This document shows positions 2,486 through 20,129 of a stretch of 39,906 bases of DNA, piece by piece. The position numbers were made by a program, and so were the translations under genes. Where the stretch lies: positions 1-39,906 of the IMG/VR virus record IMGVR_UViG_3300044580_000234, one strand, 5' to 3'. Position 1 is the first letter of the stretch; every line of letters starts with the position of its first letter. The notes beneath the pieces were generated by a model. That model made no database searches and was not told the origin of the DNA. It saw only the letters and a program-made list of their open reading frames with translations. The stretch comes from a virus (lineage: Duplodnaviria; Caudoviricetes).

Positions 2486-2490
2486 GAAAA

Positions 2491-3616: not shown

Positions 3617-3625
3617 GCAAAGACT

Positions 3626-4217: not shown

Positions 4218-4318
4218 AAATAATCCGAGAATTAAGTTGGACAATATTTTCAGTGGCGGCTGCAAGTATAGCAGCTTACCATGCGGCAAACTTATTATAT
4301 CCATTAATTGGGCGGTGA
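4214..4318 (+). CDS. Small hydrophobic peptide (34 aa)
   Basis: AGGAGG RBS; GTG overlapping the previous TGA. Confidence 0.35.
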   Translation: MKIIRELSWTIFSVAAASIAAYHAANLLYPLIGR

Positions 4319-4320
4319 AG

Positions 4321-4605
4321 ATGCAAAAACGAAAACATACTGATGCCTGGAAAATTCATGCGAGCGAAGTAGCGCGCGAATGGTATCACAAAAATAAAGA
4401 ACGACTCAAGCAAGAAAGAGCTAAGGGGAAAAAGGAGGGGGATGATGAAAGAATTATTAGTACCGCACGAAGCTTGCTTAAGGTTTGCGGATTCAGAAAT
4501 CCTGAACAAGTCAAGGATGCAATAGAATGTGTGATGGATCGAGAAAGACTTGAAAGACAAAAGCTAAAACTGAAAAAGATAAGGAGGATGATATGGGGTA
4601 GGTGA
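4321..4605 (+). CDS. Basic hypothetical protein
   Basis: ATG 4321 within the ORF-track frame 4237-4605. Confidence 0.55.
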   Translation: MQKRKHTDAWKIHASEVAREWYHKNKERLKQERAKGKKEGDDERIISTARSLLKVCGFRNPEQVKDAIECVMDRERLERQKLKLKKIRRMIWGR

Positions 4606-4676
4606 TTTACTTCTCAGTCTGTGGGCTGTGTTTGGTTGTCGGGTGTTTGTGCATCTGGATGGCAGGATAGGAGGTT

Positions 4677-5438
4677 GTGTACATGAAAAAGAGATTTACC
4701 GACACAGAAATATGGGATGATCCTTGGTTTCAGTCGTTAGATCCTGTCTACAAGTGTCTTTGGAAGTATCTTTGTGACAAATGCGATAACTCTGGAGTCT
4801 GGAAGGTGAATAAACCACTTGCTGAGTTTCAAATAAAAAGTGCTATAAATTGGGATTCTTTACATGATCTTTTTGGTGATAGGTTTGTGATGATTACAGA
4901 GTCAAAATTGTTTGTTGTGGCATTTATCGAGTTTCAATACGGAGAACTCAAAGAGTCATCAAGACCACACCAACAGGTTTTAAGACTACTGCAATCTCAC
5001 GGCTTAAGATACCCTATCGATACCCTATCTATACCCTATCCAAAGGGTATACATACCCTTCTAGATAAGGATAAAGATAAAGATAAGGATAAAGACAAAG
5101 ACAAAGACAAAGACAAAGATAAAGACAAAGATAAGGATACTGTTGAGTGCCAAATTATTAAATCACCTCTTGAGATGGCTTTTGATAGGTTTCGAGAAAT
5201 GAGGAAAAAGATCAGAAAGCCAATGACGGAAAGAGCTGAGGAATTAATCTGGAAAGAACTTAGTAAGCTTGCCGGAGAAGATAGTGATTTAAAAATTGAG
5301 ATTTTAGAGCAATCAATCAGAAATGATTGGCAGGATGTTTATGCAATTAAAAATAAATCTCAAAGACAATTTGGTAAGCAACAGTACTCAAGGCAGGATG
5401 CTATTGATACCTTTGATTTTTTAAGAGGTGACAAATGA
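4677..5438 (+). CDS. Phage replication initiator
   Basis: KRFTDTEIWDDPWFQSL N-terminus, DK low-complexity linker, C-terminal helical domain (…LEQSIRNDWQDVY); internal iterons. Confidence 0.8.
   Translation: MYMKKRFTDTEIWDDPWFQSLDPVYKCLWKYLCDKCDNSGVWKVNKPLAEFQIKSAINWDSLHDLFGDRFVMITESKLFVVAFIEFQYGELKESSRPHQQVLRLLQSHGLRYPIDTLSIPYPKGIHTLLDKDKDKDKDKDKDKDKDKDKDKDKDTVECQIIKSPLEMAFDRFREMRKKIRKPMTERAEELIWKELSKLAGEDSDLKIEILEQSIRNDWQDVYAIKNKSQRQFGKQQYSRQDAIDTFDFLRGDK
5009..5059. repeat. Iteron cluster / probable replication origin
   Basis: ATACCCTATC x3 at 11-bp period (5009, 5020, 5031) followed by palindrome AGGGTAT-AC-ATACCCT (5044-59). Confidence 0.7.
5064..5138 (+). repeat. GAYAAR hexamer x12 encoding a (DK)12 tract
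   Basis: Directly visible tandem repeat. Confidence 0.95.
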
Positions 5439-6070
5439 ACAAACAAACATTTGCAGTACAGATGCTTTATTTGTATGAATACCTTGAAATAGCACCAAAC
5501 AAAGAAAGGAATCAAAAGTATTGGGATCTCTTGAACCATCTTTCAGATGAGGATTTTTCTAATGCAGTTAAAAATGTTGTAAAAGAGTTTATTCCAACTG
5601 CAACAGTACCGTTTCCGTTGGTTGCTCATTTTCTGAAATACTGCGGTTTAGGTGGTAAAGAACAGGCCTCACACGCAATATCACTGCTCAGAGCTACAAG
5701 ACAGCGCATTGGTGCTTACAACAGTGTTTCTTTTGGTGATCCGGCATTGCACTTTGTTGTTCAGTCTTTTGGTGGATGGCCAGTGATGTGCAGGATGAGC
5801 GACAAAGAATGGGATATTAACGAAGGCAGAATGGTTGAGGCTTATAAATCAGCTCAATTTTCCAATGTTGACGCACCAGACCACTTATCCGGAATATCTG
5901 AAAGTGATGAAGGCCATTTCACGCTTGCGCTTATTCCGCCAACCGGATACCAAAACAGGAAAGAGATTCGGTGCAAGGGAAGTGTTCCCGCTGAACTTGG
6001 TTTTAAACCGTGTAATTCAACCAAAGCCATAGCAGGAATAAGCGATATCATAGCTGGTGTTATCCAGTAG
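5435..6070 (+). CDS. Replication-associated protein (DUF6475-like, helicase-loader position)
   Basis: IGAYNSVSFGDPALHFVVQSFGGWPVMC motif; coupled to the initiator. Confidence 0.6.
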   Translation: MNKQTFAVQMLYLYEYLEIAPNKERNQKYWDLLNHLSDEDFSNAVKNVVKEFIPTATVPFPLVAHFLKYCGLGGKEQASHAISLLRATRQRIGAYNSVSFGDPALHFVVQSFGGWPVMCRMSDKEWDINEGRMVEAYKSAQFSNVDAPDHLSGISESDEGHFTLALIPPTGYQNRKEIRCKGSVPAELGFKPCNSTKAIAGISDIIAGVIQ

Positions 6071-6123
6071 TGGTGCCAGTGTATTAAAATCAAAAATAGA
6101 CACATTAACGGAGGTTTTAAAGC

Positions 6124-6309
6124 ATGAATGATTTAATTGAGGAATTTGTTCAAGAGCTAAGGCAGGCTTCAGGTAAAAATACCGTTGAAATAAGGCTGCA
6201 TGTTACAAGTGAAGGCTACGAAGTTAACGAAGTTGCAAAGTCACCCGAAGCGCTAAAGGATTCGGCAATCACCATGAGAAATATCCGTGGCGAGATGATT
6301 ACATACTAA
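6124..6309 (+). CDS. Hypothetical protein
   Basis: GGAGG RBS; ORF track. Confidence 0.6.
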   Translation: MNDLIEEFVQELRQASGKNTVEIRLHVTSEGYEVNEVAKSPEALKDSAITMRNIRGEMITY

Positions 6310-6334
6310 AACTGCGAAAGGAAGGGAAGTTATA

Positions 6335-6985
6335 ATGTTTTCTTTTGATATTGAAACTATACCTAACGAGGCGATGATTGATCATTTGCCAGAACCAGAA
6401 GTAAAAACTGGCAATCTCAAAGATATTGAAAAAATCAAGGCTAAAGCTGCCGAGGCAAAACAAAAGCAAATTGACGATATGGCATTAAGCCCATTTTACG
6501 GCCGGATCTGTTCAATTGCTACATGGGGTGAATATCAGGGTTACGATGTTATTGACGAAATTTCTGATGCTGCAGAAATTGAGCTGATAACAAAAACACT
6601 TGAAAAAATGAGCTTTGGCGCAACTCAGAGCCCATCTGTAGTTACTTGGAATGGATTAGATTTTGACTTTCCGTTTCTCTACAAACGTGCTGCTCTTTTG
6701 AAAATTGCGATGCCTGCCGGATGCCCTGGACTTAGCTACTGGACAAAAAGATATTCAACGGTTCCCCACTGTGATTTAATGGCTGTTTTAACAGGCTGGA
6801 ATGGTCGATTGAAGCTTGATGAGGCAGCAGCAAATTTTCTTGGTGAAAAGAAACTTAGCCATGACTTTTCAAGGTTTATTGAGCTTATCAAAGGTGGTAA
6901 AGGCCACGAAATAGGTATTTACAACCTTAAAGATGCCGAGTTGACCTTTAACTTATTCACTGAACTTTCACCGTACCTTTTTTGA
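6335..6985 (+). CDS. DnaQ/PolB-like 3'-5' exonuclease
   Basis: ExoI FDIET, ExoII TWNGLDFDFPFL, ExoIII YNLKDA. Confidence 0.85.
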   Translation: MFSFDIETIPNEAMIDHLPEPEVKTGNLKDIEKIKAKAAEAKQKQIDDMALSPFYGRICSIATWGEYQGYDVIDEISDAAEIELITKTLEKMSFGATQSPSVVTWNGLDFDFPFLYKRAALLKIAMPAGCPGLSYWTKRYSTVPHCDLMAVLTGWNGRLKLDEAAANFLGEKKLSHDFSRFIELIKGGKGHEIGIYNLKDAELTFNLFTELSPYLF

Positions 6986-6997
6986 TCGGAGTAAACA

Positions 6998-7840
6998 ATG
7001 GCAACTAACGAAACAGGAGTAACACTTTTGAGTGTATTTGGTGGTGACAAAACAAAATTACAGCAGTACAAAAATACTGTTCAGAAAGTTTTGTCAGATG
7101 ATCAGAATTTTGAACGCTACTGGATGATGTACGCAAAAATTGCACAGGAACAGCTTTGTAGTCCATATATAAAAGACAAACAGTCTGTTATTCAGTGCTT
7201 GTTTAATGCGCCAAAGTTAAAGCTTAATCCAGATCCGGTTTTTGGTGAGATTTACTTTATACCTTATGCTGGTAAACTTACTTATCAAGTCGGATATAAG
7301 GGTATGATCAAGCTCGCTCAAAACACTGGCAAGGTCAAAAATGTTCGTGCTGGCATTGTTTACGAAAAAGACAAGTGGGAGTTCTGGGAAGACGAGAACG
7401 GGCAGCACTTTAAATTTCAACCATCTCTACAGCTTTCAGATCGTGGTAAAGAGATTTTTGTATACTCAATTTTTACCGATGAAACTGGAAAGCCCAATGT
7501 TCACATTATGGAAAGCTCTCATGTGGACAAGATTAAGGCTATGGTAAAGGCTCGGATGAAAGATAAACAGACACCTTGGGATAATGAATTGTTTGAACCT
7601 GAAATGAGGAAAAAAACTTGCATAAGAAGGCATTGGAAATATGAGCCAAAATCTGCTGAAGTTGCACATGTGATTGATTATGAAGAAAAAATTGAACGTG
7701 GCGAAAGATTTAAGGATTTACATCCTGAGCTTGAAGAAATAATCATTCCTGCATCTGACAATATCCCAGAAGGTGAAACCATTAACGACTTGATACCAGA
7801 GTTAATGACCGCAGAAGAAAAAGCAAGATTTAACAAATAA
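6998..7840 (+). CDS. recT: RecT-family single-strand annealing protein
   Basis: LNPDPVFGEIYFIPY…QVGYKGMIKLA…TPW…EMRKKTCIRRHWKYEP. Confidence 0.85.
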   Translation: MATNETGVTLLSVFGGDKTKLQQYKNTVQKVLSDDQNFERYWMMYAKIAQEQLCSPYIKDKQSVIQCLFNAPKLKLNPDPVFGEIYFIPYAGKLTYQVGYKGMIKLAQNTGKVKNVRAGIVYEKDKWEFWEDENGQHFKFQPSLQLSDRGKEIFVYSIFTDETGKPNVHIMESSHVDKIKAMVKARMKDKQTPWDNELFEPEMRKKTCIRRHWKYEPKSAEVAHVIDYEEKIERGERFKDLHPELEEIIIPASDNIPEGETINDLIPELMTAEEKARFNK

Positions 7841-7859
7841 ACTGAAAGGTAATTATAAA

Positions 7860-9215
7860 ATGAAGGTACAGAAAATCAATATCGAAAACTACAAAAACAT
7901 TGGAATCCTTGAGATTCAATGCGATGGCAAAAATTTCACCCTGAGAGGTAAAAATGGAGCTGGCAAAACTGCCGTTATAGAGGCTGTATTCAAGCTTCTC
8001 AGAGGCAAGGGAGCTGTTATATCCGATGCAGTGATGCACGGCCAGGAAGAGGCAAAAATCACTGTAGATATTGGTAATGAAAAGGTTGATCTGTCAGTGC
8101 AGGTTAAGATCAAAAAAGACGGTGACTACAGCATGAAAATGGCAACTGCAATGCCTAACGGTAAGCTCTCAAAATATACTGCCGGAGTAGTTGAGTTTGT
8201 AAAAGGGTTGTTTCATGAGCATAGCATTGATCCGTTAAAGTTCCGCAGTTTATCTGGCAGGGAGCAGGTCGCTACCTTGTTTAAACTCATGCCTGAGCTT
8301 GAAACAGAGTTTAAGCGAATTGATCAAGAAAAGCAATCAATACAACTGGCTCGATCTGTTTTAAAAGAAGAAGGTGAACGAGTGAAGTATGAACTCGAGG
8401 GTCTGGCTTTTACTGCAGGCTTGCCAGAAACCGAAGTCAATCCTGCTGAGTTGATGGAAGAGCTGAATAAGGCGAAAGAGCACAACGGGCAACTTGAAGA
8501 GCTTAAAGAAAAATTGGATCAAACTATAAGTTCTATCTCTGTTTACTCAGATAGAATAAGTTCTTGTCAGTCCAGAATTGACCGCATGAAAGCTCAGATT
8601 AGGCAGATTGAGGAGAGCATTGCAGAAGAGCAAAAAGAGATGGAACGGTACGAAAAAGAAAAAATTAGATCTGAAGAAACTAAAATCAATCTTGAAAAAG
8701 AAATCTCAGATTTTCAGGAAATCCCGGTGGCTCCCATCCAAGAAAAGATCAACAATCTTCAGGCGACAAATCAGAAGATTCGGGATAATCAGCGCCACAA
8801 AGAGTTGTCTGCCAGGATCGAAATGATCAGAGAAGCCTATTCAAAAGGCTTGGAAGATATGAGGGCCAAAGATGAGGAAAAGGTCAATCTGCTCAAGTCT
8901 GTTAAAATGCCGATCGAGGGTTTAACCATTGGCGATAATTGCTTGCTTTATCCAGATCCAAACACTGGTGAGCTGATTGACATTAACAACCTTTCGACAG
9001 GTCAATCAATTCCTGTCTGCGTTTCAATCCTTGCAGCATTCCTGCCAAAATCCAACGAAGGCGTGCGTGCTATGGCTGTCAATCTTAATGAGCTTGACGA
9101 AGATAATAGAGCTATTCTGATGAAGGCTGGAGAAGAAAACGACATCCAATTCATCATGCACGAAACCGTAGTTTCTTCCGACACAAACAGTGTCGAGGTG
9201 ATTATCACAGAATGA
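7860..9215 (+). CDS. SMC/Rad50-like coiled-coil ATPase
   Basis: Walker A GKNGAGKT, long coiled coil, LSTGQ signature. Confidence 0.8.
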   Translation: MKVQKINIENYKNIGILEIQCDGKNFTLRGKNGAGKTAVIEAVFKLLRGKGAVISDAVMHGQEEAKITVDIGNEKVDLSVQVKIKKDGDYSMKMATAMPNGKLSKYTAGVVEFVKGLFHEHSIDPLKFRSLSGREQVATLFKLMPELETEFKRIDQEKQSIQLARSVLKEEGERVKYELEGLAFTAGLPETEVNPAELMEELNKAKEHNGQLEELKEKLDQTISSISVYSDRISSCQSRIDRMKAQIRQIEESIAEEQKEMERYEKEKIRSEETKINLEKEISDFQEIPVAPIQEKINNLQATNQKIRDNQRHKELSARIEMIREAYSKGLEDMRAKDEEKVNLLKSVKMPIEGLTIGDNCLLYPDPNTGELIDINNLSTGQSIPVCVSILAAFLPKSNEGVRAMAVNLNELDEDNRAILMKAGEENDIQFIMHETVVSSDTNSVEVIITE

Positions 9216-9346
9216 CAGACACAGAACTACTAAACCTCTGCAAAGAGCGCCTGAAGGGTTATCCTGACGGCGCTCAGGCGGAGAAAATTAGAATTCAAAT
9301 TAAGAGGCTGGAGGATAGATGCAAAAAGGACCAAGCGAAAAAGTAA
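9212..9346 (+). CDS. Small hypothetical protein (44 aa)
   Basis: ATGA overlap with the upstream stop; MTDTELLNLCKERL…. Confidence 0.4.
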   Translation: MTDTELLNLCKERLKGYPDGAQAEKIRIQIKRLEDRCKKDQAKK

Positions 9347-9507
9347 TAAGGGTTTGCACTGGCTGCGATTATAAAATAATTAAACACAATTTCAAAACCT
9401 GTGTTCAGCCGAAAATAGTTGACAGGGTAATATTTACACCTAATGACGAAACTCCAGAATGGTGTCCGTATAATGATGTTGAGGTGTTAAATGGTAATCA
9501 AATTTGA
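9319..9507 (+). CDS. Small Cys-containing phage protein (CTGC…PEWCP)
   Basis: GGAGG RBS; motif typical of phage early genes. Confidence 0.55.
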   Translation: MQKGPSEKVIRVCTGCDYKIIKHNFKTCVQPKIVDRVIFTPNDETPEWCPYNDVEVLNGNQI

Positions 9508-9910
9508 GGTTCCATGTGTTCCGGTAGCACAACCAAGGCAAAGGCACTCTGTTGTAAATGGTCATGTGAGAAATTACATACCAAAAACAGATCCGGTATG
9601 GGTATTTAAAACGGCTTTGCAATTAGCAGCAAGCACGGTCAGGCCTGAAACAATCCTTTCAGGCCCCATCAGGATAATATTGGATTTCATTTTTCCAAGG
9701 ACTAAGTCAATGATTTGGAAAAATAAACCAATGATTAGAGTTCCAAAGGACACAAAGCCGGATATTGATAATTTGTGTAAATCAGTATTTGACGCACTCA
9801 ACGGGATTTTATTTATAGACGATAGCCAGATCTGGTCTTGTTGCGCAAGTAAATATTTTGCGTCCGGTAACGAACAACCCGGGGTGATAGTGACCATTGA
9901 AGAAATGTAA
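9491..9910 (+). CDS. rusA: RusA Holliday junction resolvase
   Basis: KPDIDNLCKSVFDALNGILFIDDSQI. Confidence 0.92.
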   Translation: MVIKFEVPCVPVAQPRQRHSVVNGHVRNYIPKTDPVWVFKTALQLAASTVRPETILSGPIRIILDFIFPRTKSMIWKNKPMIRVPKDTKPDIDNLCKSVFDALNGILFIDDSQIWSCCASKYFASGNEQPGVIVTIEEM

Positions 9911-9971
9911 TAGATAAAGAGAGGTGCATGTAAGCAATTAGTTGTCAGTTCATAAACCGATGGAGATATAG

Positions 9972-10304
9972 ATGAAAAAGCTGATTGATATTATTGAGGC
10001 TGTCAAAAACAATGAGAAGCCTGACTATGATGAGTTAAGGTATGCAGTATTGGCGCTATCCGCACTTAACACATTTGATTCAATGGCTATCGGTAAACTT
10101 GCAGAAGGTGAAAGAGAAAAGAAAAAGCCATTTTTGACCTATAGTGCTGAATGGCAGCTTAAAGAATCATTCAGAAGGAATAAAGCAGCATTTGGCAAAT
10201 CTCCTAAAGAGTGGTTAGGGTGGAATAATGATCCTGAGAATCCTGAGTATCAAAAATGTAGAAAAATTTCAATAAAAATTTTTGATAAATTTTTAAAGGA
10301 CTGA
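9972..10304 (+). CDS. Hypothetical phage protein
   Basis: GGAG RBS; ORF track. Confidence 0.65.
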   Translation: MKKLIDIIEAVKNNEKPDYDELRYAVLALSALNTFDSMAIGKLAEGEREKKKPFLTYSAEWQLKESFRRNKAAFGKSPKEWLGWNNDPENPEYQKCRKISIKIFDKFLKD

Positions 10305-10308
10305 ATAT

Positions 10309-10479
10309 ATGCCAGATAAAAAGCTGATTGATTTTGAGACGTTGTGTGAAATAATACACCTACAATGCGATCCTAATTGTGACGGCCTAATTAATCATTG
10401 TCCAATCTGGAACAGACTGCCGGATGCTAAAGACACGGAAAGGTTTAAGCAATCATGGTTGGAGTATGAAGGATACTAA
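10309..10479 (+). CDS. Small Cys-rich protein (56 aa, CPIWNRL)
   Basis: Read manually; AAGGA RBS. Confidence 0.5.
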   Translation: MPDKKLIDFETLCEIIHLQCDPNCDGLINHCPIWNRLPDAKDTERFKQSWLEYEGY

Positions 10480-10544
10480 CAATTAACTAGGGGGATGCGA
10501 TGTGTTAGTTTCGTTTTAAATGAAAATGTAATGGAGGAAATCTA

Positions 10545-10703
10545 ATGTTGCCAAATGATTATTGTCGCTGTGTCAATCCAGGTTGCGACAAAAAAGAAAG
10601 TTGTTTGCGGTACATCGAGCGCAACAACCGGAGTTTCAGGACTCCGAGTGTTGATCAGATGTGTATTAAAGAGAAAGCGTATTTTATCGAGGTTGATAAA
10701 TGA
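10545..10703 (+). CDS. Small Cys-rich protein (52 aa, CRC…CDKKESCLRY)
   Basis: GGAGG RBS; read manually. Confidence 0.55.
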   Translation: MLPNDYCRCVNPGCDKKESCLRYIERNNRSFRTPSVDQMCIKEKAYFIEVDK

Positions 10704-10837
10704 ATCCAAAACTATTGCCCACAATACTGATGATAATTGATTTCGGTGCAGCACTTCCATATTTCTGCTGCGGAGATTGGAAGCGGGGAATTTACTGGAT
10801 TGCTGCTGGAGTGTTAACTTGGAGCGTGACATGGTGA
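10700..10837 (+). CDS. Small two-TM phage protein (MNPKLLPTILMIIDFGAA…IYWIAAGVLTWSVTW)
   Basis: GAGG RBS; ATGA overlap; read manually. Confidence 0.55.
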   Translation: MNPKLLPTILMIIDFGAALPYFCCGDWKRGIYWIAAGVLTWSVTW

Positions 10838-10839
10838 GT

Positions 10840-10962
10840 ATGAAAAGAGTAAAGATGCTTTCCGACTCAGATATAATAGCAAGCGCAATCGGTATTGAGA
10901 TTGAGGAAAAATACTGCGAGATTGCAGTTGAACGATTAATGCAGGAGGTTTTGGCACTGTGA
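10840..10962 (+). pseudogene. Remnant C-terminus of an N6/N4 DNA methyltransferase
   Basis: AIGIEIEEKYCEIAVERLMQEVL is the usual MTase tail; no DPPY or FxGxG motif is present. Confidence 0.6.
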
Positions 10963-11582
10963 TCTCAACCGAGCTGTTAACTACCGAAGAAGTGGCCAAA
11001 ATATTCAAGCTGGCCGAAAAAACGGTGTATGAATGGGCCAGATTGGGGAAAATTCCCAGCGTAAAATTATTCACTGAAACACGATTCAGAAGGGAGGTGA
11101 TTGAAGATATATGCAAAAATGGATTGCACAAGACTGTGAGCGAGAACAATTTTCCAAAGCCGAGAGCGAAAGTGAAAAAACAGGAGAGAATTGTGGGTAA
11201 GCAAGATATTGCAGAAAAGGTTGAGGATTTTCTATTTGGTGTTGCAGATGCCTTCGATAACATTAAGCGTATAGGATCAGATACTGATGGTCCAGAAGGT
11301 GTTCCGGAGCCGAATATGGCATGCAAATTAAAAGCAAGTGAAATATGTAAGCAGATTTTCGAAGTCTATGAAAAAATGACTGATAGAATTGCACCGACTA
11401 AAGAGGGAGGTGTATTCATTGCTTTTGATTCTCCAAGCGGTAATAAAACACTTTTTATTGAGGTTTATAATGACCTTGAGGCTGGTTATCTTATCAACGA
11501 CAATGAAAATAAGAATATAATCGCATCAGATGATATAACAGATTTTAAATTCGATGATATTTTCCAGTTTATAAATGAATGA
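10959..11582 (+). CDS. Excisionase-type HTH (HTH_17) fused to an acidic C-terminal domain
   Basis: LLTTEEVAKIFKLAEKTVYEWARLGKIPSVK…RFRRE. Confidence 0.75.
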   Translation: MISTELLTTEEVAKIFKLAEKTVYEWARLGKIPSVKLFTETRFRREVIEDICKNGLHKTVSENNFPKPRAKVKKQERIVGKQDIAEKVEDFLFGVADAFDNIKRIGSDTDGPEGVPEPNMACKLKASEICKQIFEVYEKMTDRIAPTKEGGVFIAFDSPSGNKTLFIEVYNDLEAGYLINDNENKNIIASDDITDFKFDDIFQFINE

Positions 11583-11676
11583 CAGTAAAGCTCTCCAGAA
11601 GTATACTCCCTCCGATTATGCTGTAACCGATAATGTCATAATTACCTATTGGATGCCCCTTCCACCACTGCATTAA
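11575..11676 (+). pseudogene. 33-aa chimeric remnant ending in a DUF551-like motif
   Basis: MNDSKALQKYTPSDYAVTDNVIITYWMPLPPLH*. Confidence 0.4.
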
Positions 11677-11702
11677 TGCAATATATAGAGATTAAAAATA
11701 GA

Positions 11703-11769
11703 TTATAAAAAAAGTATTATTTTTATAAAAAATATGTTGCAAATTATAAAAATATGTGTTATATTATAA
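11703..11769 (+). promoter_or_regulatory. Strong promoter of the putative anti-CRISPR operon with phased operator boxes
   Basis: TTGCAA (11737-42), 17 nt, TG-n-TATATT (11760-65); AT-rich UP region; TTATAA at 11703, 11723, 11744, 11764. Confidence 0.7.
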
Positions 11770-11806
11770 GTGTAAGCAAAACAATCACCTAAACAAGGAG
11801 TCTGAT

Positions 11807-12451
11807 ATGGTAGATGCTTCTGGAAACAAGGTAACCCTTTTTGATGAATACGATTTCGACAAGCCATTGACCCATGAGTCAACTGATGATTTTGACGGAT
11901 TACTGAAAAGACTATCTGAATTGGAAGATGAGAACTATGGTGCAATGCTTTTTAAAGGGGTATTTGCACTTGAAGGTTTAGAGGGTCAAGATCTTGGCAA
12001 TGGTGGGCGGCAACATACCTATATTCCACGGAAAAATCTTATCGCTGATAGTTGGGACATAGACGAGGAAAGAGCAATAGAGCTAATTAAAAACGAATAT
12101 CCTGATGCAAATGAAGAACAGCTATGTGTTATAAAGAGGATTGCTATTAATGAGCAATCCATATGGGATATTGTAGAAGCTGAATACGATGGCGAAAATA
12201 TTCTTAGCGAATTAATGAGTGATGATTTAGGCGAAGTTGACTGGATGTTACAAGGCCTTCGTGGGCAAATAGCAGCTGATCAGGGATTTGATGCGATTAA
12301 AATGCGTGATGAACATGGTACGTCTTATCTAATACCTATCGGTAGTAAAGCTCTCTACTTGGGCCAGATAGAGAGCTGGGATGAGTATTATGCAATTGTG
12401 GATAGACTAAAGGGAACCAAAAACGTGAGTGAATTTGAAACTAAAGAGTAA
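11807..12451 (+). CDS. acrIF11: AcrIF11-like ADP-ribosyltransferase (putative anti-CRISPR)
   Basis: WMLQGLRGQIAADQGFDAIKMRDEHGTSYLIP matches the recalled AcrIF11 C-terminus WELQRLRG…GYTSVEMEDEHGTTWL; also LTHES ~ LFHGS and FKGVF ~ FGGLF; AAGGAG RBS; very acidic. Confidence 0.75.
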   Translation: MVDASGNKVTLFDEYDFDKPLTHESTDDFDGLLKRLSELEDENYGAMLFKGVFALEGLEGQDLGNGGRQHTYIPRKNLIADSWDIDEERAIELIKNEYPDANEEQLCVIKRIAINEQSIWDIVEAEYDGENILSELMSDDLGEVDWMLQGLRGQIAADQGFDAIKMRDEHGTSYLIPIGSKALYLGQIESWDEYYAIVDRLKGTKNVSEFETKE

Positions 12452-12479
12452 GCAAACAACAATCAACAAAGGAGTTATC

Positions 12480-13103
12480 ATGGATAAGAAATTGGCAAAT
12501 ATGTACATCTTCCCCGCAGCAGTAGGAGAAGAGAAAAAATCGGTGTCTTCTCTCGTAGTAGAGGGCGACACTGTCAGAATTAATCATGTAGGAGGTTGTG
12601 CACCTTGCTCTTCAAGATTGAATTTCTTCGTCTCCGAAATTGTGGAAATGTACGGAGTCGATGAGCTTCTTAACATGAGGAGAAATAGAAAGTATCCCTT
12701 CAGGGTTAAATGCCGTGAAGGAAAGTCGGGCTCACACGACTATTACATCGAGTATTATAAGGCCGTTGATGGAACTGATTATTACATTCCTATGCGGAGC
12801 GGAAGGCTACATATTTCAATGTACTGGAAGCTCAATCAACCCATAAAAATATGGGTAGGTGACTTTATTGAAATAGCGTACTATAACCAAAAGGACTGTG
12901 ATGAAGGTGTCGATATGGGAGAGGAATCTCTTAAAAAGTACCTTGAGTATACACTGGATAACACCAGCGTTGATGATGATGAATATGGGATTGTCAGAAA
13001 ACCTCTTCTGACAAAAGAAGATTTGGAGGGAGCGGTTGTTAAAGGCAGACCGCACAGGGTGATTAGGAGGGAAGAAACGGTAAAAGAGGGAGTTGAGAAT
13101 TAA
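12480..13103 (+). CDS. Unknown 207-aa protein within the anti-CRISPR operon
   Basis: AAGGAG RBS before ATG 12480; no family recognised. Confidence 0.75.
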   Translation: MDKKLANMYIFPAAVGEEKKSVSSLVVEGDTVRINHVGGCAPCSSRLNFFVSEIVEMYGVDELLNMRRNRKYPFRVKCREGKSGSHDYYIEYYKAVDGTDYYIPMRSGRLHISMYWKLNQPIKIWVGDFIEIAYYNQKDCDEGVDMGEESLKKYLEYTLDNTSVDDDEYGIVRKPLLTKEDLEGAVVKGRPHRVIRREETVKEGVEN

Positions 13104-13109
13104 CTAAAC

Positions 13110-13127
13110 CGCTCCCTGCGGGGAGCG
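13110..13127 (+). other. GC-rich intergenic hairpin without a U-tract
   Basis: CGCTCCC-TGCG-GGGAGCG. Confidence 0.7.
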
Positions 13128-13188
13128 TAACACTTAAAAATCAACAAGAGAGTGAAACTACTTCAAACCTTTTTAGAAAGGAAATAAA

Positions 13189-13743
13189 ATGAAACTATTA
13201 AATGCTCTTAGTCTTAATATGTATGATGCTGATTCTCTTTTTCCAGTTGCTGAGAAGATATCTATTGAGAAAGTAAAAGATCTTCTTTTTCCGGTTCATT
13301 GTGACAGTGGAGAATATAGTCTTTCACCACTGTCAAGAGCAAGACTTGAAAATAAACCAGAAATTACACAATTTAATAATTGTGAATCTTGTATCGGCCA
13401 TGCCGATACTGCAAATGTTTTATCTAATCTATTACAAAATGAAATCCCTTGCAATAGAGTTACAGTACAATTAAAACAAAATGAAAAATGTATTGTAGCT
13501 CAATATATAGGCCCAAGACTTCCTTCTGGAAGTCTAAGACTTCCAGAAGGTTCAAATATTGAATTCTTCCTTGTAAAAATGGAATCAAGAAAATCATTTG
13601 AAAAAATGATATCTTTACAAAAAGATATTTACGATTTGGCACATGCTATTGCAGGTTGGGGTGATTCTATTACAATAGATGATGTAAAAAAAGTTTTAGA
13701 AAAGCATTTTCCACATTATTTTTGTGAACATGCTTTTGATTAA
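13189..13743 (+). CDS. acrIII-1: AcrIII-1 / DUF1874 viral ring nuclease with an insertion and a C-terminal extension
   Basis: LLNALSLNM, SCIGHADTA (GH motif), NRVTVQL, AQYIGPRLP…LPEG…IEFF. Confidence 0.85.
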   Translation: MKLLNALSLNMYDADSLFPVAEKISIEKVKDLLFPVHCDSGEYSLSPLSRARLENKPEITQFNNCESCIGHADTANVLSNLLQNEIPCNRVTVQLKQNEKCIVAQYIGPRLPSGSLRLPEGSNIEFFLVKMESRKSFEKMISLQKDIYDLAHAIAGWGDSITIDDVKKVLEKHFPHYFCEHAFD

Positions 13744-13791
13744 GAAGAAAAGGGGCTTTCATAAACAATTTCTGATCTGAAAGGAGATAAA

Positions 13792-13950
13792 ATGCTAAAA
13801 GACACAAAAAAGTATGCGTACCCAATCGATCCGGTACGTAAAAAAAGGATCGATAAAATGTGCGTAAAGCACAATAAGAGTATCAAGCAAGTGCTTGACA
13901 AGGCACTTGATGATTATTTAGACAAACTCGAAAAAACCGATCCGGTATAG
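13792..13950 (+). CDS. Ribbon-helix-helix protein, candidate Aca regulator (52 aa, not in the ORF track)
   Basis: AAGGAG RBS; KKYAYPID strand, then RKKRIDKMCVKH and SIKQVLDKALDDYL helices. Confidence 0.7.
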   Translation: MLKDTKKYAYPIDPVRKKRIDKMCVKHNKSIKQVLDKALDDYLDKLEKTDPV

Positions 13951-13960
13951 GGGGGGGGTT

Positions 13961-14002
13961 AAAAAAGCCCATTCCTGAGTTACAGTGGGGCTTTTCAGGA
14001 AT
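13961..14002 (+). terminator. Probable terminator / structured 3' end of the acr operon
   Basis: AAAAGCCC…GGGCTTTT stem; overlapping alternative ATTCCTGA…TCAGGAAT. Confidence 0.5.
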
Positions 14003-14026
14003 AAACTTAAAACTTGGAGGTATTTC

Positions 14027-14125
14027 ATGAAAAAAGTTAAACTTATTCTGTCAAGCATTCTGTTTTACATTGGCTTTATGTTGATACATCTTTCTGGCAT
14101 AATGTGCAAAGGGGTGCAAGAATGA
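14027..14125 (+). CDS. Small membrane peptide (32 aa)
   Basis: GGAGG RBS; MKKVKLILSSILFYIGFMLIHLSGIM…. Confidence 0.45.
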   Translation: MKKVKLILSSILFYIGFMLIHLSGIMCKGVQE

Positions 14126-14418
14126 ATAAAATCATATTGTTAGGGGTTTTATTGCTGTCTAACTGTTGCTCTCGCTCTCCAGTAAAATTTCTGGTGAAAT
14201 TATCAGATACAGTAAGCAGTTCATCTGCTGCTGGGGCTGCCAAGTATATTTGTCAGGAAGCAGAAATTGCTGCTATTAATGGGGAGCGGGAAATTATTAA
14301 GCGGGTAGATCAGGAAGAAATTCAAAGGGTTATCGATGAACTACGGAGGATCGACAGAAGATTTAAAACAGAGATCAGGCAGGATAGTATTTACACTGAA
14401 TTGATTGTGAGGTGGTGA
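14122..14418 (+). CDS. Putative lipoprotein
   Basis: MNKIILLGVLLLSNCC signal; ATGA overlap. Confidence 0.55.
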   Translation: MNKIILLGVLLLSNCCSRSPVKFLVKLSDTVSSSSAAGAAKYICQEAEIAAINGEREIIKRVDQEEIQRVIDELRRIDRRFKTEIRQDSIYTELIVRW

Positions 14419-14546
14419 TGTATTATAAGCGATACACAGCCGGACTCGGCCAAAAAGCAAAAGAGTTGCCGCCTGAACATCGATGCTACACGGTAGCCGA
14501 GGTAGAACTTATAATCAGTCGGCTTTCGCTTGATATTCGGGCGAAA

Positions 14547-15865
14547 GTGACACACCACGGGGCAAGCCCCGTGGCTTCTCGTTTCAATGACTGATGCAAC
14601 CGTCTGTCTCCACGAGCGTATTAGATTTGGACTTGTCCAGCCCTATCAAATTTTGTTTGTCAAATGCAAAATCCCTTATATTACACGCAGCTAAAAAATC
14701 CCTATCATGTTTAGCACCACACTCACAAACCCATTTTCTATCAGAAAGTTTCAACTCTTGATTTACTTTTCCACACACATTACAAATCTTTGAAGAAGGT
14801 TCAAATCTATCTATTCTCAATATATTCTTACCCTCCCATTCTGCTTTATACATAAGAAAAGAAATAAATGTACTCCACCCAACATCTCCAATAGATTGTG
14901 CTAAACAATGATTTTTCATCATGCCTTTTACATTCAAAGTTTCAAGACAATATGTATTGATTTGGTTTTCATCAATTAGTTCTCTTGAAACCTTATGCAA
15001 AAAATCATTTCTCTGATTTGTTATTTTTTCATGAATCTTTGCTACTCTTTTTCTCTGTTTATTTCTTCGATTACTTCCTTTCTTTTTCCTGCTTAATTTT
15101 TTTTGTTCTTTCTTTAATTTACATATAGACTTTTTCAAATGCTTGGGATTCTCAAACGACTTACCATTACTACAAACAGCAAAATCTTTTATACCCAAGT
15201 CAATTCCTATTGCTTTGTTTATATCTGGTTTTTCTTTTTTCGGTTCTGGTATGTTTTCTTCAACTAATATTGAAGCAAAGTATTTATCTGTTTTTGTTTT
15301 GTTTACCGTTACAGTTTTTATTATCCCTTCAAATTGTCTATGAAATCTACATTTTATTCCTTCTCTGAACTTCATCACGTGAAGTTTATTATTTTCAAAA
15401 TCAACTTTGTTTTTTTGTGGAAATTGACATGATTGTTTGTCATGTTTTGATTTAAATTTAGGGAATCCATTCTTTTCTCTGAAAAATCTTGTATATGCTT
15501 GGTCAAGGTTTACTAACGATGCTTGGAGTGACTGGCTATTTACTTCTTTCAGCCATTTAGTTTCTTTTTCATTTTTTAGAGAAACTAAATCTTTTTGTAT
15601 TTCAAATCGGGAAAGAGTTTTCTTTTCCTTTGTATAATGTTCTATCTTTTTTGCTAAGGCATAGTTATAGATATATCTGCAACAACCGAAATGTTTTGAC
15701 AGCAATTCTTGCTGCTGTTTATTAGGATAAAGTCTATATTTGTATGCTTTTAGTATTTTCATATTTATAATATACTACATTATTTAGAATTTGTCGAATG
15801 GCTTTTGAAATTATTTTGCCAATTCATCCTCGGGGCAAGCCCACGAGGATTTCTTGGCAGTTCCT
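14547..15865 (-). mobile_element. IS200/IS605-family tnpB-only (IS1341-type) element
   Basis: Related subterminal hairpins CCTCGTGGGCTTGCCCCGAGG (left end) and CCACGGGGCTTGCCCCGTGG (right end); right end TCAC; TTAA upstream of the left end; no tnpA. Confidence 0.85.
14584..15762 (-). CDS. tnpB: TnpB RNA-guided endonuclease
   Basis: KAYKYRLYP HTH, GIDLGIK (RuvC-I), CLETLNV (RuvC-II), CNVC…CEC zinc finger, HDRDFLAACNI (RuvC-III). Confidence 0.95.
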   Translation of the reverse strand: MKILKAYKYRLYPNKQQQELLSKHFGCCRYIYNYALAKKIEHYTKEKKTLSRFEIQKDLVSLKNEKETKWLKEVNSQSLQASLVNLDQAYTRFFREKNGFPKFKSKHDKQSCQFPQKNKVDFENNKLHVMKFREGIKCRFHRQFEGIIKTVTVNKTKTDKYFASILVEENIPEPKKEKPDINKAIGIDLGIKDFAVCSNGKSFENPKHLKKSICKLKKEQKKLSRKKKGSNRRNKQRKRVAKIHEKITNQRNDFLHKVSRELIDENQINTYCLETLNVKGMMKNHCLAQSIGDVGWSTFISFLMYKAEWEGKNILRIDRFEPSSKICNVCGKVNQELKLSDRKWVCECGAKHDRDFLAACNIRDFAFDKQNLIGLDKSKSNTLVETDGCISH

Positions 15866-15897
15866 TTAACACCTGAAGAATTTAAGAAAGTCGAGCT

Positions 15898-16260
15898 ATG
15901 CCTAAAAGAGCATTGAGACCATGCAAGCAGCCCGGATGCCCCGCCCTTGTGGAATCCGGGTACTGTGATAAGCACAGGGGTAAAGAGATTGATCATAAAC
16001 AATCTTTGCGGTCTCTGAAGTCAGAGAATGAGGCTTTCTATCACACCAATCGATGGAAAGAAACATCTAAGGCTTTTAGGGCTGCAAACCCATTCTGTGC
16101 GCCTTGCAAAAGGTCTGGAATTATCGAGCGAGTACACACCGCCCACCATGTGCCGGATCTATCTGTTTTGCTGAAAGAGGGGAAAGATCCTTACGATTGG
16201 CAATATTTAGAAGCGGTATGTTTTAACTGTCACCAGAAAGAACTAAAAAAGAAAAGATAA
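15898..16260 (+). CDS. Terminase-associated HNH endonuclease (HK97 gp74-like)
   Basis: MPKRALRPCKQPGCPALVESGYCDKH…FYHTNRW…NPFCAPC…AHH…CFNCH. Confidence 0.85.
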   Translation: MPKRALRPCKQPGCPALVESGYCDKHRGKEIDHKQSLRSLKSENEAFYHTNRWKETSKAFRAANPFCAPCKRSGIIERVHTAHHVPDLSVLLKEGKDPYDWQYLEAVCFNCHQKELKKKR

Positions 16261-16338
16261 CTACAAATGCGCCAAGGAAGCCGAAAGATAACATCAAACC
16301 GCCGCCAGCTCCACCACCGCCGCCGCCTAAAAAATAAA

Positions 16339-16352
16339 GCCCCTTTCGGGGC
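16339..16352. terminator. Hairpin terminator at the early/late convergence point
   Basis: GCCCC-TTTC-GGGGC with an A-run on the left (U-tract on the - strand). Confidence 0.65.
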
Positions 16353-16365
16353 CACCGGAGGAGAG

Positions 16366-16851
16366 CTAAACTTTAGATAAAACACCTTTCCGATAATCTG
16401 GAAAAAGCGGCCTCAATTTACTTGTCACACCAATCAGGCTTCTTGTATTCATCACAGTTTCTATTGTATGCTTGCGATATCCAGCCAGCTTTCCGCCAAC
16501 TCTGACTGCACTGTACATTAAATTCCTTTTAACCCTGTTCACTCCGGCCGCTTCCATGATTGCCAGAAATATTTTATCATTAACTTTTCTGTCAAATATT
16601 TCTCCGGCGTACAGGAAATCATGCACCAGGGCAGCCGCAGCATAGTCAGGATGGTAGGGCTGCAATGTATTCCAGAACCCCCAAGGAATTGACGCGTGAT
16701 CATATTCAAAACCTGCCGGAATTACATTCAGGTCGCCATTAATAATTATTTCAAAATCCTTTTCCAGAACAAACTTCGGCCTTCTATTTTCAAATTTATC
16801 AATCCCGTAAATGTTCGGTATCTTTTCGATTAATCTGATTTTGTATTCCAT
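16366..16851 (-). CDS. DUF1353-family protein
   Basis: IPAGFEYDHASIP…AALVHDFLY…DKIFLAIM…MYSAVRVGG. Confidence 0.85.
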   Translation of the reverse strand: MEYKIRLIEKIPNIYGIDKFENRRPKFVLEKDFEIIINGDLNVIPAGFEYDHASIPWGFWNTLQPYHPDYAAAALVHDFLYAGEIFDRKVNDKIFLAIMEAAGVNRVKRNLMYSAVRVGGKLAGYRKHTIETVMNTRSLIGVTSKLRPLFPDYRKGVLSKV

Positions 16852-16862
16852 AATCCCCCCCC

Positions 16863-17153
16863 TTAAAAACCTGCGTAGCTGTCCGGAAACACCATAAACC
16901 AGACCGCCTTGCAGTAGTTAATTGTTGATTGGAACCATGACAGATCAATACCGCTCAGAATCTTATATATCCCGGACCCAACCAGAGCGCCGACAGTTGA
17001 CCAAGTTGCAATTGTAATCTTTATTTTAGATAACTCTTTCTTAGAATTCTCATGGTCGTCATGTATATCCTGAATAAATTTCTTGTTGTTTCTGACTTCA
17101 GTTTCCACAACAGCCATCCTTTCAACTAGCCCAGTATGTTTTTCGCATGTCAT
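16863..17153 (-). CDS. Holin-like membrane protein
   Basis: Coiled coil followed by a hydrophobic C-terminus, adjacent to the putative endolysin. Confidence 0.45.
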   Translation of the reverse strand: MTCEKHTGLVERMAVVETEVRNNKKFIQDIHDDHENSKKELSKIKITIATWSTVGALVGSGIYKILSGIDLSWFQSTINYCKAVWFMVFPDSYAGF

Positions 17154-17626
17154 TTTTTATCCTCGATCAAAGGCTTGACGACCAGTTTTCCTTTTTCACC
17201 CACAGTAAACAGTTCCATAAATTCCGGCCAGAGATCAGGCGCTAACGTGAGGCATCCTGCGCTGCCCCGCCAATTCGGGTTATTTCCGGTACCGCCTGAA
17301 TGCACGAAAACCTCTGTAAATATTGTTCCGTTTGCGTTTTTTATCGGATTCCGGCTCTTAACCTCGCCGCCCTTATTTATCAGCAAGCATTTGCCATATT
17401 TAGGATGTTCTACACACTCCCATTCACATTCCTGATAATCAATCCAATCATAGACCAGCTTCCATGGGATTGGATGGCCCTGACCGTTAAGCTTGTACGG
17501 GTTCGGGCAACAACTCGCATGAGATCCCCAGAGATTCTTTTTGCCTTCGTCAACAGTTATATAGTCCCCGTATCCCATTTCTGGGTTATCGGGCTTGCTT
17601 AGACTGTGGAGAGTTATTGTTTTCAT
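17150..17626 (-). CDS. Putative endolysin with an L,D-transpeptidase-like motif
   Basis: VFVHSGG…GSAGCLTL (HxG…SxGC); lysis-cassette position. Confidence 0.55.
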   Translation of the reverse strand: MKTITLHSLSKPDNPEMGYGDYITVDEGKKNLWGSHASCCPNPYKLNGQGHPIPWKLVYDWIDYQECEWECVEHPKYGKCLLINKGGEVKSRNPIKNANGTIFTEVFVHSGGTGNNPNWRGSAGCLTLAPDLWPEFMELFTVGEKGKLVVKPLIEDKK

Positions 17627-17629
17627 AGT

Positions 17630-17905
17630 TTACCTTTGTCGAATGGCAATTTTAATACTGTAATCTTCAATCCGGCCGAGTTGTGATACTGTTCTGCATG
17701 TGATAATATACGCTTTACCTGCAGTACCGCCTGAACACCAGAAGGTAACTTTGTTATTTGTAATTGTCGGTGATTCAACAGTGATACCCTCAGGCGCAAT
17801 AATTTCTGCACTTGTAACAGTATCGTCGTCTACAAAGTGCTCTGTATAATCAAGGGTGAAATCCACCCTTGAATCCGGATCTTTAAATTTAATTGGAGTT
17901 TCCAT
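17630..17905 (-). CDS. Small virion adaptor protein (KDPD…DY family)
   Basis: KDPDSRVDFTLDY…WCSGGTAGKAYIITC motif seen beside phage fibre genes. Confidence 0.6.
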   Translation of the reverse strand: METPIKFKDPDSRVDFTLDYTEHFVDDDTVTSAEIIAPEGITVESPTITNNKVTFWCSGGTAGKAYIITCRTVSQLGRIEDYSIKIAIRQR

Positions 17906-17908
17906 ACA

Positions 17909-18412
17909 TTACCCCGCCGCTGCTGTACAAGTGACAGTGACGCTTAGAGTGTCGCCGTTAGACAGTGTTTTGTTACCGCCTGCAAATGCTCCTCCCCCGT
18001 ACAGAACGCCCGAAGTGCCACTCTTGTTAGCATTTGATACAATGAACGCTCCCCCGATCTGGGTATTGTCTGCGTTTATAGTGTACACCGCCTTGTTAGC
18101 AGAATTATTCACAGAACCACCGGTTACTTCACTAAACACTAAAGCAGGTCTCGAAGTCTCACTGTATGCTGTTACTTCATTCCATCCTGCATGGGATGCC
18201 ATTGTATCACCTGCAGCGAATACAGGACTTGCTCCCGATAATCCTAAATACCACGCGGCAGAGTAATTGCTACCCTTTAAGTGTTTATCAAGCGAATCAT
18301 TAAGACCTTCGTTAGTAACTAAGTTTGTGAAGCTTTCAACCCATTTTAGATTGCCGTTTTTATCCCTGCATTCTATTTCGTAATAGTTTTCGAGCTTCTT
18401 TTGAATATCCAT
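17909..18412 (-). CDS. Virion structural / fibre-associated protein
   Basis: NLVTNEGLN…WYLGL…GDTLSVT; Gly/Thr/Ala-rich beta protein. Confidence 0.6.
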   Translation of the reverse strand: MDIQKKLENYYEIECRDKNGNLKWVESFTNLVTNEGLNDSLDKHLKGSNYSAAWYLGLSGASPVFAAGDTMASHAGWNEVTAYSETSRPALVFSEVTGGSVNNSANKAVYTINADNTQIGGAFIVSNANKSGTSGVLYGGGAFAGGNKTLSNGDTLSVTVTCTAAAG

Positions 18413-18420
18413 AACACCCC

Positions 18421-19140
18421 CTATTTAATTTTTATGGTTCTGTTTTCAAATGGTACTTTTATTATTCTATTTTCAAATAATATTTTAATAATTCTTTCAG
18501 ATGGAGTAATTATTGTTATAGTTGAATCTGTTGCATTTAGATCTATTAATACCGAGTATCCAATGTTCAAAGCCGCTAAACCGATAGCTTGAGATATTAG
18601 ATCTATCGATAAATCTTTTTCTACTGAAATACTTGCTGAAGCGGCAGAGTTGGCCGATGAAATAATTGACTTTATTGTGCTTAATGCAACGTCGGTCTGG
18701 TAGTTTCCTGTGCTATTTGCCGAACTATCAAGCGACTTAGACAGCGATAGTTCTACGTCATAGTTTGATCCGTTAGTTGTACTTACCTGTTTTATTGCGG
18801 CCAGTATAACAACTGCGTCTGTTGTGGCTTGAGAGGATTCCAAAATAGACAATAGTTTGTCTATTGTTAATACAGCTTGAAGTACGCTTGTAGCCGAATA
18901 TTCGTTTGTAATTGACTTACTCAGAGATATTAAGTCGTTAAAGTTTCCAATGCCGCCCGAATCATATTCTATACTTTTGGAAAGATCAATTGAAGCGTTA
19001 AACATAGCGTTTACACCAGACAAAATTGATGATGATCTGGAAATGGTTATAGTTTCCTCGTATACAGTTCCACCACCAGAGGGCACAAACTGCAGTGCTC
19101 CAATATCCCAACCACCTGATTGTATCGCTCCAATGTCCAT
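18421..19140 (-). CDS. Ser/Ile-rich fibre-like protein
   Basis: Periodic L-S-K-S-I repeats; C-terminal ENRIIK repeats. Confidence 0.5.
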   Translation of the reverse strand: MDIGAIQSGGWDIGALQFVPSGGGTVYEETITISRSSSILSGVNAMFNASIDLSKSIEYDSGGIGNFNDLISLSKSITNEYSATSVLQAVLTIDKLLSILESSQATTDAVVILAAIKQVSTTNGSNYDVELSLSKSLDSSANSTGNYQTDVALSTIKSIISSANSAASASISVEKDLSIDLISQAIGLAALNIGYSVLIDLNATDSTITIITPSERIIKILFENRIIKVPFENRTIKIK

Positions 19141-19142
19141 AG

Positions 19143-20129
19143 TCAGTATCCGTACGGGTTGATTCCTGCATTAATACAAGGTGATGTTGATTGCAATCGT
19201 AAATCTTCATTTCCAGATACTTCTGATATAAACAAAGGATCAGAATGGATATTACCATGCCCTGAAACAGTGCCTAAATCAGTATCACCTAATGAATTAT
19301 TAGAAAAGCAATTATTAAAATATTTCATTACAAACAATGGTGTATTATGCGTATGAATAGCATATCCTAAATTTAATCTAAATATATTATTAACAATTGT
19401 TAGATATCTATTCGCTTCAGAGTAAAACTGTATTGCGTTTCCAGTACATTTAAAAAAAGTATTACCATTAATAAAATTCCCGTTTATTGCCACATTAGCT
19501 CTTATAGCAATATTGTTTCCAATAAATATATTATTAATAATATGCGTGTTCGTCCCACAATAAATACCTATTCCGTTATTTACAATTTGACAGCCCATGA
19601 CTATGGAATTACTAAATCTTGACGTATTTGATGAGCCAACACCTACTGAACACTCAGTAAATTTTGAAAAAAATATTTCAAATATTGATAAGGACGAAAT
19701 TGTAATAACTCCATATCCAGCACAATTTTTGAAATCGCATCTATTGATTCTACCATATACTGTGTTTGTACCTGTATAAATTGCATGTTGTGGCGAATTT
19801 CTAAATTCAATGTTTTCTATTTCAAAACATTGATTAGCAACATTAAATCTAAATATATCGCTACCTGTTGTCAATGTTGCACCGTTTAAAACAGGTTTTG
19901 TCCCATCAATTATTCCATAAGCATTCGCACCAATTACTCTGACATAACCAGAACTACTACCGGCTACAGGAAATGATAAGGGAGAAGATACTATATATTC
20001 ACCGTCTGCCATTATTATAATATCATCTCCAGCAACAGCATTAGCAACTGATTCAGATAATGTCCAAGGTGAAGACAAAGAGCCATCACCTCCACCTATT
20101 GCAAGACTTGATACGTAGTAAACTGCCAT
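19143..20129 (-). CDS. Right-handed beta-helix (pectin-lyase-like) spike / depolymerase candidate
   Basis: YYVS…GDGS..SPW, Asn-ladder repeats, DPLF…LRLQSTSPCINAG. Confidence 0.75.
   Translation of the reverse strand: MAVYYVSSLAIGGGDGSLSSPWTLSESVANAVAGDDIIIMADGEYIVSSPLSFPVAGSSSGYVRVIGANAYGIIDGTKPVLNGATLTTGSDIFRFNVANQCFEIENIEFRNSPQHAIYTGTNTVYGRINRCDFKNCAGYGVITISSLSIFEIFFSKFTECSVGVGSSNTSRFSNSIVMGCQIVNNGIGIYCGTNTHIINNIFIGNNIAIRANVAINGNFINGNTFFKCTGNAIQFYSEANRYLTIVNNIFRLNLGYAIHTHNTPLFVMKYFNNCFSNNSLGDTDLGTVSGHGNIHSDPLFISEVSGNEDLRLQSTSPCINAGINPYGY

Follow-up and report, generated by a model that had tools for sequence, protein, structure and literature searches.

The window analyzed here is the whole 39.9-kb record of a tailed phage from a sludge digester. 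Its terminase, portal, protease, capsid and tail genes lie on the minus strand. The plus strand carries a replication and recombination arm with an antirepressor, an exonuclease, RecT (a RecT-family protein according to a profile search) and RusA. The far end of this arm is made up of an island of four genes (g1 to g4), whose neighbors are an IS605 tnpB gene and the terminus of the late, minus-strand block of genes (Table 1). A preliminary description of this DNA had proposed four co-oriented genes, each with its own ribosome-binding site, and this is what the locus contains: all four ORFs have the same orientation and AAGGAG or AAGGAA is found shortly 5' of every ATG. The 3' side of the island holds three small ORFs, the tnpB gene and an HNH gene, and small plus-strand ORFs run on past g4 up to position 14594. 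No cas family was detected among the 30-36 window proteins scanned.

Table 1. Features of the island, with positions in the window
Feature	Position	Strand	Basis or remark
Four TTATAA palindromes at 11703, 11723, 11744 and 11764	11703-11769	.	Spacing 20, 21, 20; spans the promoter
Promoter-like site, sigma-70 type, TTGCAA-17-TATATT with TG	11737-11765	+	Promoter scan; site count not above chance
g1, stand-alone ADP-ribosyltransferase of AcrIF11 fold, 214 aa, acidic (pI 4.3)	11807-12451	+	Structure-sequence and NCBIfam matches
A/C-rich leader and RBS, of a type common to other phage cassettes	12452-12479	+	Junction with g2 present or absent
g2, orphan alpha/beta protein, 207 aa	12480-13103	+	Candidate counter-defence gene by position only
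Stop codon, CTAAAC and GC hairpin (13110-13127)	13101-13135	+	Recurring inter-cassette element; no U-tract on the plus strand
g3, AcrIII-1/DUF1874 homolog, 184 aa	13189-13743	+	PF08960, 45.8 bits (cut-off 26)
5-bp inverted arms around a 4-nt loop, loop inverted relative to related loci	13519-13532	.	DNA alignment with 7 related loci
g4, basic protein, predicted ribbon-helix-helix (RHH), 52 aa	13792-13950	+	Candidate Aca-like repressor
Weak closing hairpin, then a short T run	13963-13995	+	-12.2 kcal/mol

Some observations concern the surroundings of the island. The tnpB gene (IS605 family, 14584-15762, minus strand) lies beside it and is missing from this slot in two related loci (L003 and L004). 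The closest relatives of this tnpB (82% and 77%) come from bins labelled Bacteroidales and 'Actinomycetes', respectively, which is insufficient for a host assignment. The comparison of positions 1-19900 with five genomes gave matches at the tnpB/IS region and one 32-nt match. The latter was considered as a CRISPR spacer and rejected: its site lies in coding-like sequence, outside any CRISPR array. Further away, a divergent HTH-like gene and a Bro-N/KilAC antirepressor (1264-3462) suggest a temperate layout; no integrase was found among the window proteins scanned. Near the terminase genes, a radical-SAM gene (37999-38772, plus strand) faces a ParB-methyltransferase fusion (38755-39843, minus strand).

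The proposal that g1 is an AcrIF11-like ADP-ribosyltransferase (ART) is borne out by its matches to both solved AcrIF11 structures (6kyf, E = 2.3e-5; 8dwq, E = 2.3e-4; profile E = 4.2e-8) and to the AcrIF11 equivalog family NF052490 (55.4 bits, cut-off 50). H23, F53 and D168/E169 of g1 align with H7, F26 and D115/E116 of AcrIF11 (the residue offset was inferred from the tag). According to 10.1101/2024.08.26.609590, D115/E116 are catalytic in AcrIF11 and the identity of the active-site residues varies in Pae2, an active homolog. Compared with the AcrIF11 described there (6KYF, 8DWQ), g1 has the same ART fold, catalytic D-E pair, first histidine and phenylalanine, but it is longer than the approximately 130-145 aa of AcrIF11, the second histidine is replaced by an asparagine (N63) and its nearest kin are domains of polyvalent proteins. 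The chemistry of AcrIF11 is likely shared by g1.

The type I-F target that had been attributed to g1 fares less well. The profile search produced 433 matches, the best 150 of which were examined. Among the 30 top relatives scanned, six carry polyvalent-protein domains (InPase, PBECR5, ART-PolyVal and LPD were found beside the g1-type domain) and 24 have no Pfam match. The NF052490 cut-off is passed by 23 of 30 relatives scanned against NCBIfam, including five of the seven proteins longer than 900 aa. A quick tree (144 of 153 rows, nine short matches having been dropped; midpoint root; Pae1/Pae2 absent) places g1 in a clade (support 99) with three stand-alone or short relatives and one protein of 4338 aa. 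This clade is nested in a larger one of 55 rows, 18 of which are proteins of more than 600 aa, and under the midpoint root g1 stands apart from the two best AcrIF11 scorers, P0166 and P0193. The grouping of g1 with ART domains from large polyvalent proteins of phages means that Csy is not necessarily its target, and since such domains pass the AcrIF11 HMM cut-off, the label 'AcrIF11' does not name a target. Polyvalent proteins are a known class in phages (PMC5512222); in the present phage the domain stands alone as a gene of its own, within a non-structural island. One cluster of 11 members (P0070) contains a copy of g1, 85% identical, with about 63 extra N-terminal residues and no Pfam match. 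We take this extension to resemble a phage head-core protein.

The identification of g3 as an AcrIII-1 homolog also stands, as its model (pLDDT 83) matches 6scf in Foldseek (E = 2.7e-6, target TM 0.70) in addition to the Pfam match. It is carried on a mobile element (terminase, portal and capsid genes are present) and not in a cas locus; cas-locus homologs are Crn2. In SIRV1 gp29, His47 is catalytic and N8, S11, N13, T50, R66, Q81 and R85 bind cA4 (10.1101/778746). The catalytic and cA4-binding residues named in that source are matched in g3 by H71, N5, S8, N10, T74, R90, Q105 and R110, and the position of S49 is occupied by D73. The cA4-binding residues are conserved across the g3 subfamily. 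Thus, g3 shares the fold, the catalytic histidine and the cA4-binding residues of SIRV1 gp29 (6SCF; 10.1101/778746), but its predicted model adds an insertion of about 30 residues (low-confidence, residues ~37-62) and a helical C-terminal tail of about 50 residues, and a serine (position 113) stands where gp29 has Glu88, a residue of the closing loop over cA4. The tail motif of this long subfamily is present in 23 of 65 homologs. Glutamate occupies position 113 in 62 of the 65 homologs and in all seven aligned loci. The DNA alignment shows that Ser113 replaces glutamate because the 4-nt loop between two 5-bp arms is inverted, and a perfect 14-nt inverted repeat (13522-13550) overlaps this site. 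The Ser113 allele was found in no other sequence, the exact g3 protein is absent from the searched collection and the Glu allele is present in runs X1, X3 and X7; as the allele was seen only here, it may be an assembly error. In the journal version of the AcrIII-1 study, Glu88 is said to aid catalysis. For g3, binding and cleavage of cA4 are predicted, with the Ser113 allele likely performing them less well. The native anti-CRISPR action of the family is itself disputed: according to 10.1101/2023.01.10.523387, natively expressed SIRV2 AcrIII-1 did not act as an Acr and SIRV2 gp37 binds a host methyltransferase.

The two remaining proteins are less well characterized by homology. The preliminary description called g2 an unknown gene, and it belongs to no Pfam, PHROG or NCBIfam family. 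Its AF2 model (pLDDT 67) has no fold match (best Z 4.5) and no match was found in the Atlas, the PDB or the phage records, which does not by itself mean a new fold. Only close kin are known, namely a 35-member 90% cluster and two clusters at 73-74%. A counter-defence role may be suggested for g2. The assignment of g4 to the RHH proteins agrees with its Atlas feature matches to RHH clusters (0.91-0.93); its match to Pfam RHH_9 (E = 0.053) lies below the Pfam cut-off. The g4 cluster has 24 members, and this predicted RHH gene sits last in a cluster of acr type. Beside two sister islands (L004:3379-3537 and L007:776-961) there are other small basic genes, RHH-like on visual inspection and with no Pfam match.

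The island had been described as having one promoter and a closing hairpin. There is a promoter-like site in front of g1, and its layout resembles that of the promoters ahead of the small-gene arrays in L002 and L004. Nevertheless, such sites are no commoner between 10500 and 15500 than in shuffled sequences (14 versus a mean of 16.0) and others occur at 11692, 12435 and 13162, so that a single promoter is not established. This site is spanned by four TTATAA palindromes that form the sole chain of this kind within the window. Four equal palindromic hexamers with this spacing appeared in none of 5000 dinucleotide shuffles of 11690-11790, and four equal hexamers of any sort in three of 5000. This array could be the operator of g4; it was found in none of 12 other loci checked, none of which has a close g4 homolog. 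Regarding the closing hairpin, the sequence can fold as proposed, but the structure is weak, given that 16 of 200 shuffles fold equally well and the terminator scan did not flag it. The strongest hairpin of the island had been missed: it is internal, between g2 and g3 (z = -3.3 for 13095-13190), terminator-like on the minus strand only, and its stem recurs in L003 and L004. An integron attC reading of this internal hairpin was rejected by eye, as it lacks the RYYYAAC/GTTRRRY pair that constitutes the attC consensus. The leader of g2 is identical over 24 of 24 nt to the AcrIII-1 leader of L002. No Rfam ribozyme was found between 11500 and 14150.

The distribution of the island was studied in environmental sequences. 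Digesters, bioreactors, sludge, compost and soil account for 20 of the 24 listed island-bearing runs, from 12 studies, and the four intact ORFs have near-unchanged copies in runs of 12 studies. Parts of the island also appear in RNA runs as contigs only, which is no measure of transcription. The IMG/VR scans with g1, g2, g3, the promoter and the hairpin gave no match, the scan with g4 gave three partial matches (42%), and the GTDB scan with g3 gave none. PF08960 is absent from five related phage records, whose terminases are 53-72% identical and which are 35-93% complete.

Homologs of g3 with 80-93% amino acid identity were found in nine metagenome loci (three others, L010-L012, were dropped from the initial 12 as 27-residue, 48% matches). 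Several of the nine are short, with three ending within g3, and two of them (L003 and L004) are almost the same sequence. In all nine, g3 lies among other small genes, and none carries g1, g2 or g4. L003 has late genes in common with the window at 82%, and its g3 occupies the same slot among other genes. In L005 and L008 the g3-g4 spacer is kept (96%) ahead of different genes. No known anti-defence Pfam family was detected among 23 other small genes of these sister islands, one of which encodes a pentapeptide-repeat protein; a 24th gene encodes DUF932.

The gene junctions were surveyed in the contigs of eight runs from six studies. In six runs and five studies (X1, X2, X14, X3, X4, X7), g1 (~99% identity) leads directly to the internal hairpin, without g2, through joints at 12456->13102 and 12466/7->13101. 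The hairpin is joined to g4 in three of the eight runs, all from one study, and it lies 5' of g2 in three (joints in X16 and X7, a loose end in X3). Promoter-to-hairpin and hairpin-to-promoter (13137->11687) junctions were each seen in one contig, and X6 has no rearranged joint. Single contigs bridge g2-hairpin and hairpin-g3 (X6 record 18, X2 record 29). Among the contig pieces listed, none bridges g1-g2 by 31 nt on both sides and none contains the full g1-g4 combination intact. The contigs that contain these joints have 85-88% likeness, and the short sides of the joints measure 24-32 nt, for which other organisms or repeats are possible sources; the joints are read here as arrangements in other phage genomes, not as recombination events. 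The summed depth of the contigs increases at the junctions, which is expected of shared sequence, depth not being equivalent to copy number. A stable, self-contained unit is not supported, since other phage genomes lack some of the genes or hold them in another order.

The junctions themselves recur. A motif made up of a stop codon, ACYAA and a GC hairpin, derived from the very loci used for the count, has eight matches (five distinct elements) in 37 kb of g3 loci and one in the window, as compared to eight in 738 kb of other viral loci and none in 283 kb of bacterial loci; shuffles had at most one match each, with one in 20 shuffles. Leader and hairpin elements recur in L003, L004 and L007, and the joints end at both.

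Two sister islands have ribozyme matches at their junctions. In L004 (1982-2038, plus strand) a Pistol match (35.2 bits, gathering threshold 34.5) lies 3' of a small gene, and the arms of its P3 stem are those of the window hairpin (13111-13126). In L002 (2147-2209, plus strand) a type II hammerhead-like RNA (32.3 bits, below the gathering threshold of 37; E = 0.0044) lies directly 5' of the RBS of AcrIII-1, and L003 and L004 contain a truncated copy of the 5' half of this RNA. A literature search on ribozymes with anti-CRISPR yielded one unrelated review. L004 (2115-2180, plus strand) also contains a tRNA 3' portion, Pro-GGG on visual inspection (26.8 bits in Rfam, below gathering), which is a possible attP and host clue, and L001 (4415-4675) has 20-nt AT-rich tandem repeats, iteron-like, 5' of its small-gene array.

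Parts of this organization have precedents. Shuffled clusters of two to four acr genes are already known, and the acr-aca loci described in PMC7648647 resemble the island in having two to four shuffled small genes before a small DNA-binding gene, with differences between related phages. The loci presented there use HTH proteins, whereas the island has an RHH protein and a ring-nuclease homolog, its RHH gene is itself exchangeable and its setting is the digester. An Aca of the RHH type, which had been thought new, is already described as Aca14 in a 2026 preprint (10.64898/2026.07.27.740549), including a csx20-rhh operon with a ring-nuclease homolog. As in the Aca14 system of that preprint, an RHH gene accompanies a ring-nuclease homolog in the putative anti-defence operon of the island, and the AT-rich operator of Aca14 over the -10 element has a candidate counterpart here; in contrast, this candidate consists of four hexamers two helical turns apart. 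The shuffling mediated by PeSLs in T4-like phages is known too: in PMC2839356 and PMC4122927 these are short promoter/leader/stem-loop elements which, like those of the island, lie between non-essential genes and mark indel end points. Yet the phage studied here is small (~40 kb) with a long-tail-type gene set, its hairpins have no U-tract on the coding strand, its promoter and hairpin do not form one fixed unit, and the elements are common across genomes more than within this one. New here are the TTATAA array over the promoter and the recurring leader and hairpin junctions that resemble T4 PeSLs. The pairing of AcrIF11 with AcrIII-1, presented earlier as apparently undescribed, is indeed not evidently in print, the papers listed as naming both (seven of nine) being reviews or tool papers by their titles. 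The combination is, however, likely one draw from a pool.

Several scenarios may account for the island. The most probable, in our view, is that it is a variable accessory island of a tailed phage, whose genes are combined and ordered differently in the DNA of related phages, and that it likely serves counter-defence. Its content likely represents one selection from a common pool of exchangeable counter-defence genes, as opposed to a fixed anti-CRISPR operon with two targets. The preliminary description favored an operon, co-selected against the type I-F (g1) and type III (g3) CRISPR systems of a single host and controlled by a new Aca. The significant matches of g1 to AcrIF11/ART and of g3 to DUF1874 leave both Acr family memberships standing; g1 is acidic, stand-alone and above the equivalog cut-off, g3 keeps His71, the RHH gene comes last, like aca genes, and shuffling is compatible with a function in this genome. 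Nevertheless, the same cut-off admits most of the scanned relatives of g1, very long proteins included, g1 is distant from the best AcrIF11 scorers in the quick tree, g3 lacks the conserved glutamate and the intact combination was not recovered among the contig pieces listed. A stable unit and the I-F target are the parts that are not supported, and we regard such an operon as unlikely.

T4 Mod and Alt modify housekeeping targets, and g1 could likewise do so in a general host-takeover island, with g3 acting through a non-CRISPR partner and any CRISPR inhibition being incidental. The nearest g1 relatives (best 150 of 433) include ART domains of polyvalent proteins of 1000-4300 aa, the g3 subfamily adds a helical tail, and the SIRV2 gp37 partnership (10.1101/2023.01.10.523387) would fit this scenario. 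Yet the conservation of the cA4-binding residues across the g3 subfamily speaks against it and no host-takeover family was matched, making this explanation quite unlikely. Finally, the region could consist of decaying or neutral ORFans, or be an assembly mosaic of co-occurring phage strains. Shared repeats can yield chimeric assemblies, the Ser113 allele was seen only here and the g1-g2 joint is unbridged by 31 nt on both sides among the contig pieces listed. Nevertheless, four intact ORFs, near-unchanged across 12 studies, and single contigs that span the g2-hairpin and hairpin-g3 joints make this very improbable.

If the island is an accessory set of swappable counter-defence genes, its function may be pictured as follows. 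A strong promoter would fire upon DNA entry and the four genes would be co-transcribed early, the cassettes supplying counter-defence enzymes. The g1 enzyme would ADP-ribosylate a host protein, likely a defence protein though not necessarily Csy, and g3 would degrade cA4, probably with reduced efficiency as the Ser113 allele. Then g4 would bind the four TTATAA boxes, repress the promoter and shut the block down. As has been proposed for T4 PeSLs, recombination at the short shared junctions may exchange cassettes among phages that infect one host. A broader and more tentative possibility is that unrelated phages infecting the same anaerobic-digester host exchange individual counter-defence genes through a shared leader/hairpin kit, some junctions of which carry self-cleaving ribozymes (Pistol in L004, type II hammerhead in L002). 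In that case, the junction motif would offer a sequence tag for the mining of novel anti-defence genes, g2 being an example. Likewise, g1 would be an AcrIF11-type enzyme that was recently excised from a polyvalent protein of the virion and redirected to a new target.

The admission of ART domains of polyvalent proteins by the AcrIF11 HMM cut-off is a warning for annotation. The island yields testable material. This comprises g2 as an orphan candidate inhibitor, an extended subfamily of AcrIII-1 in which the active-site loop has a natural variant, a predicted RHH regulator whose candidate operator is sharply delimited, and the junction sequences at which genes are swapped.
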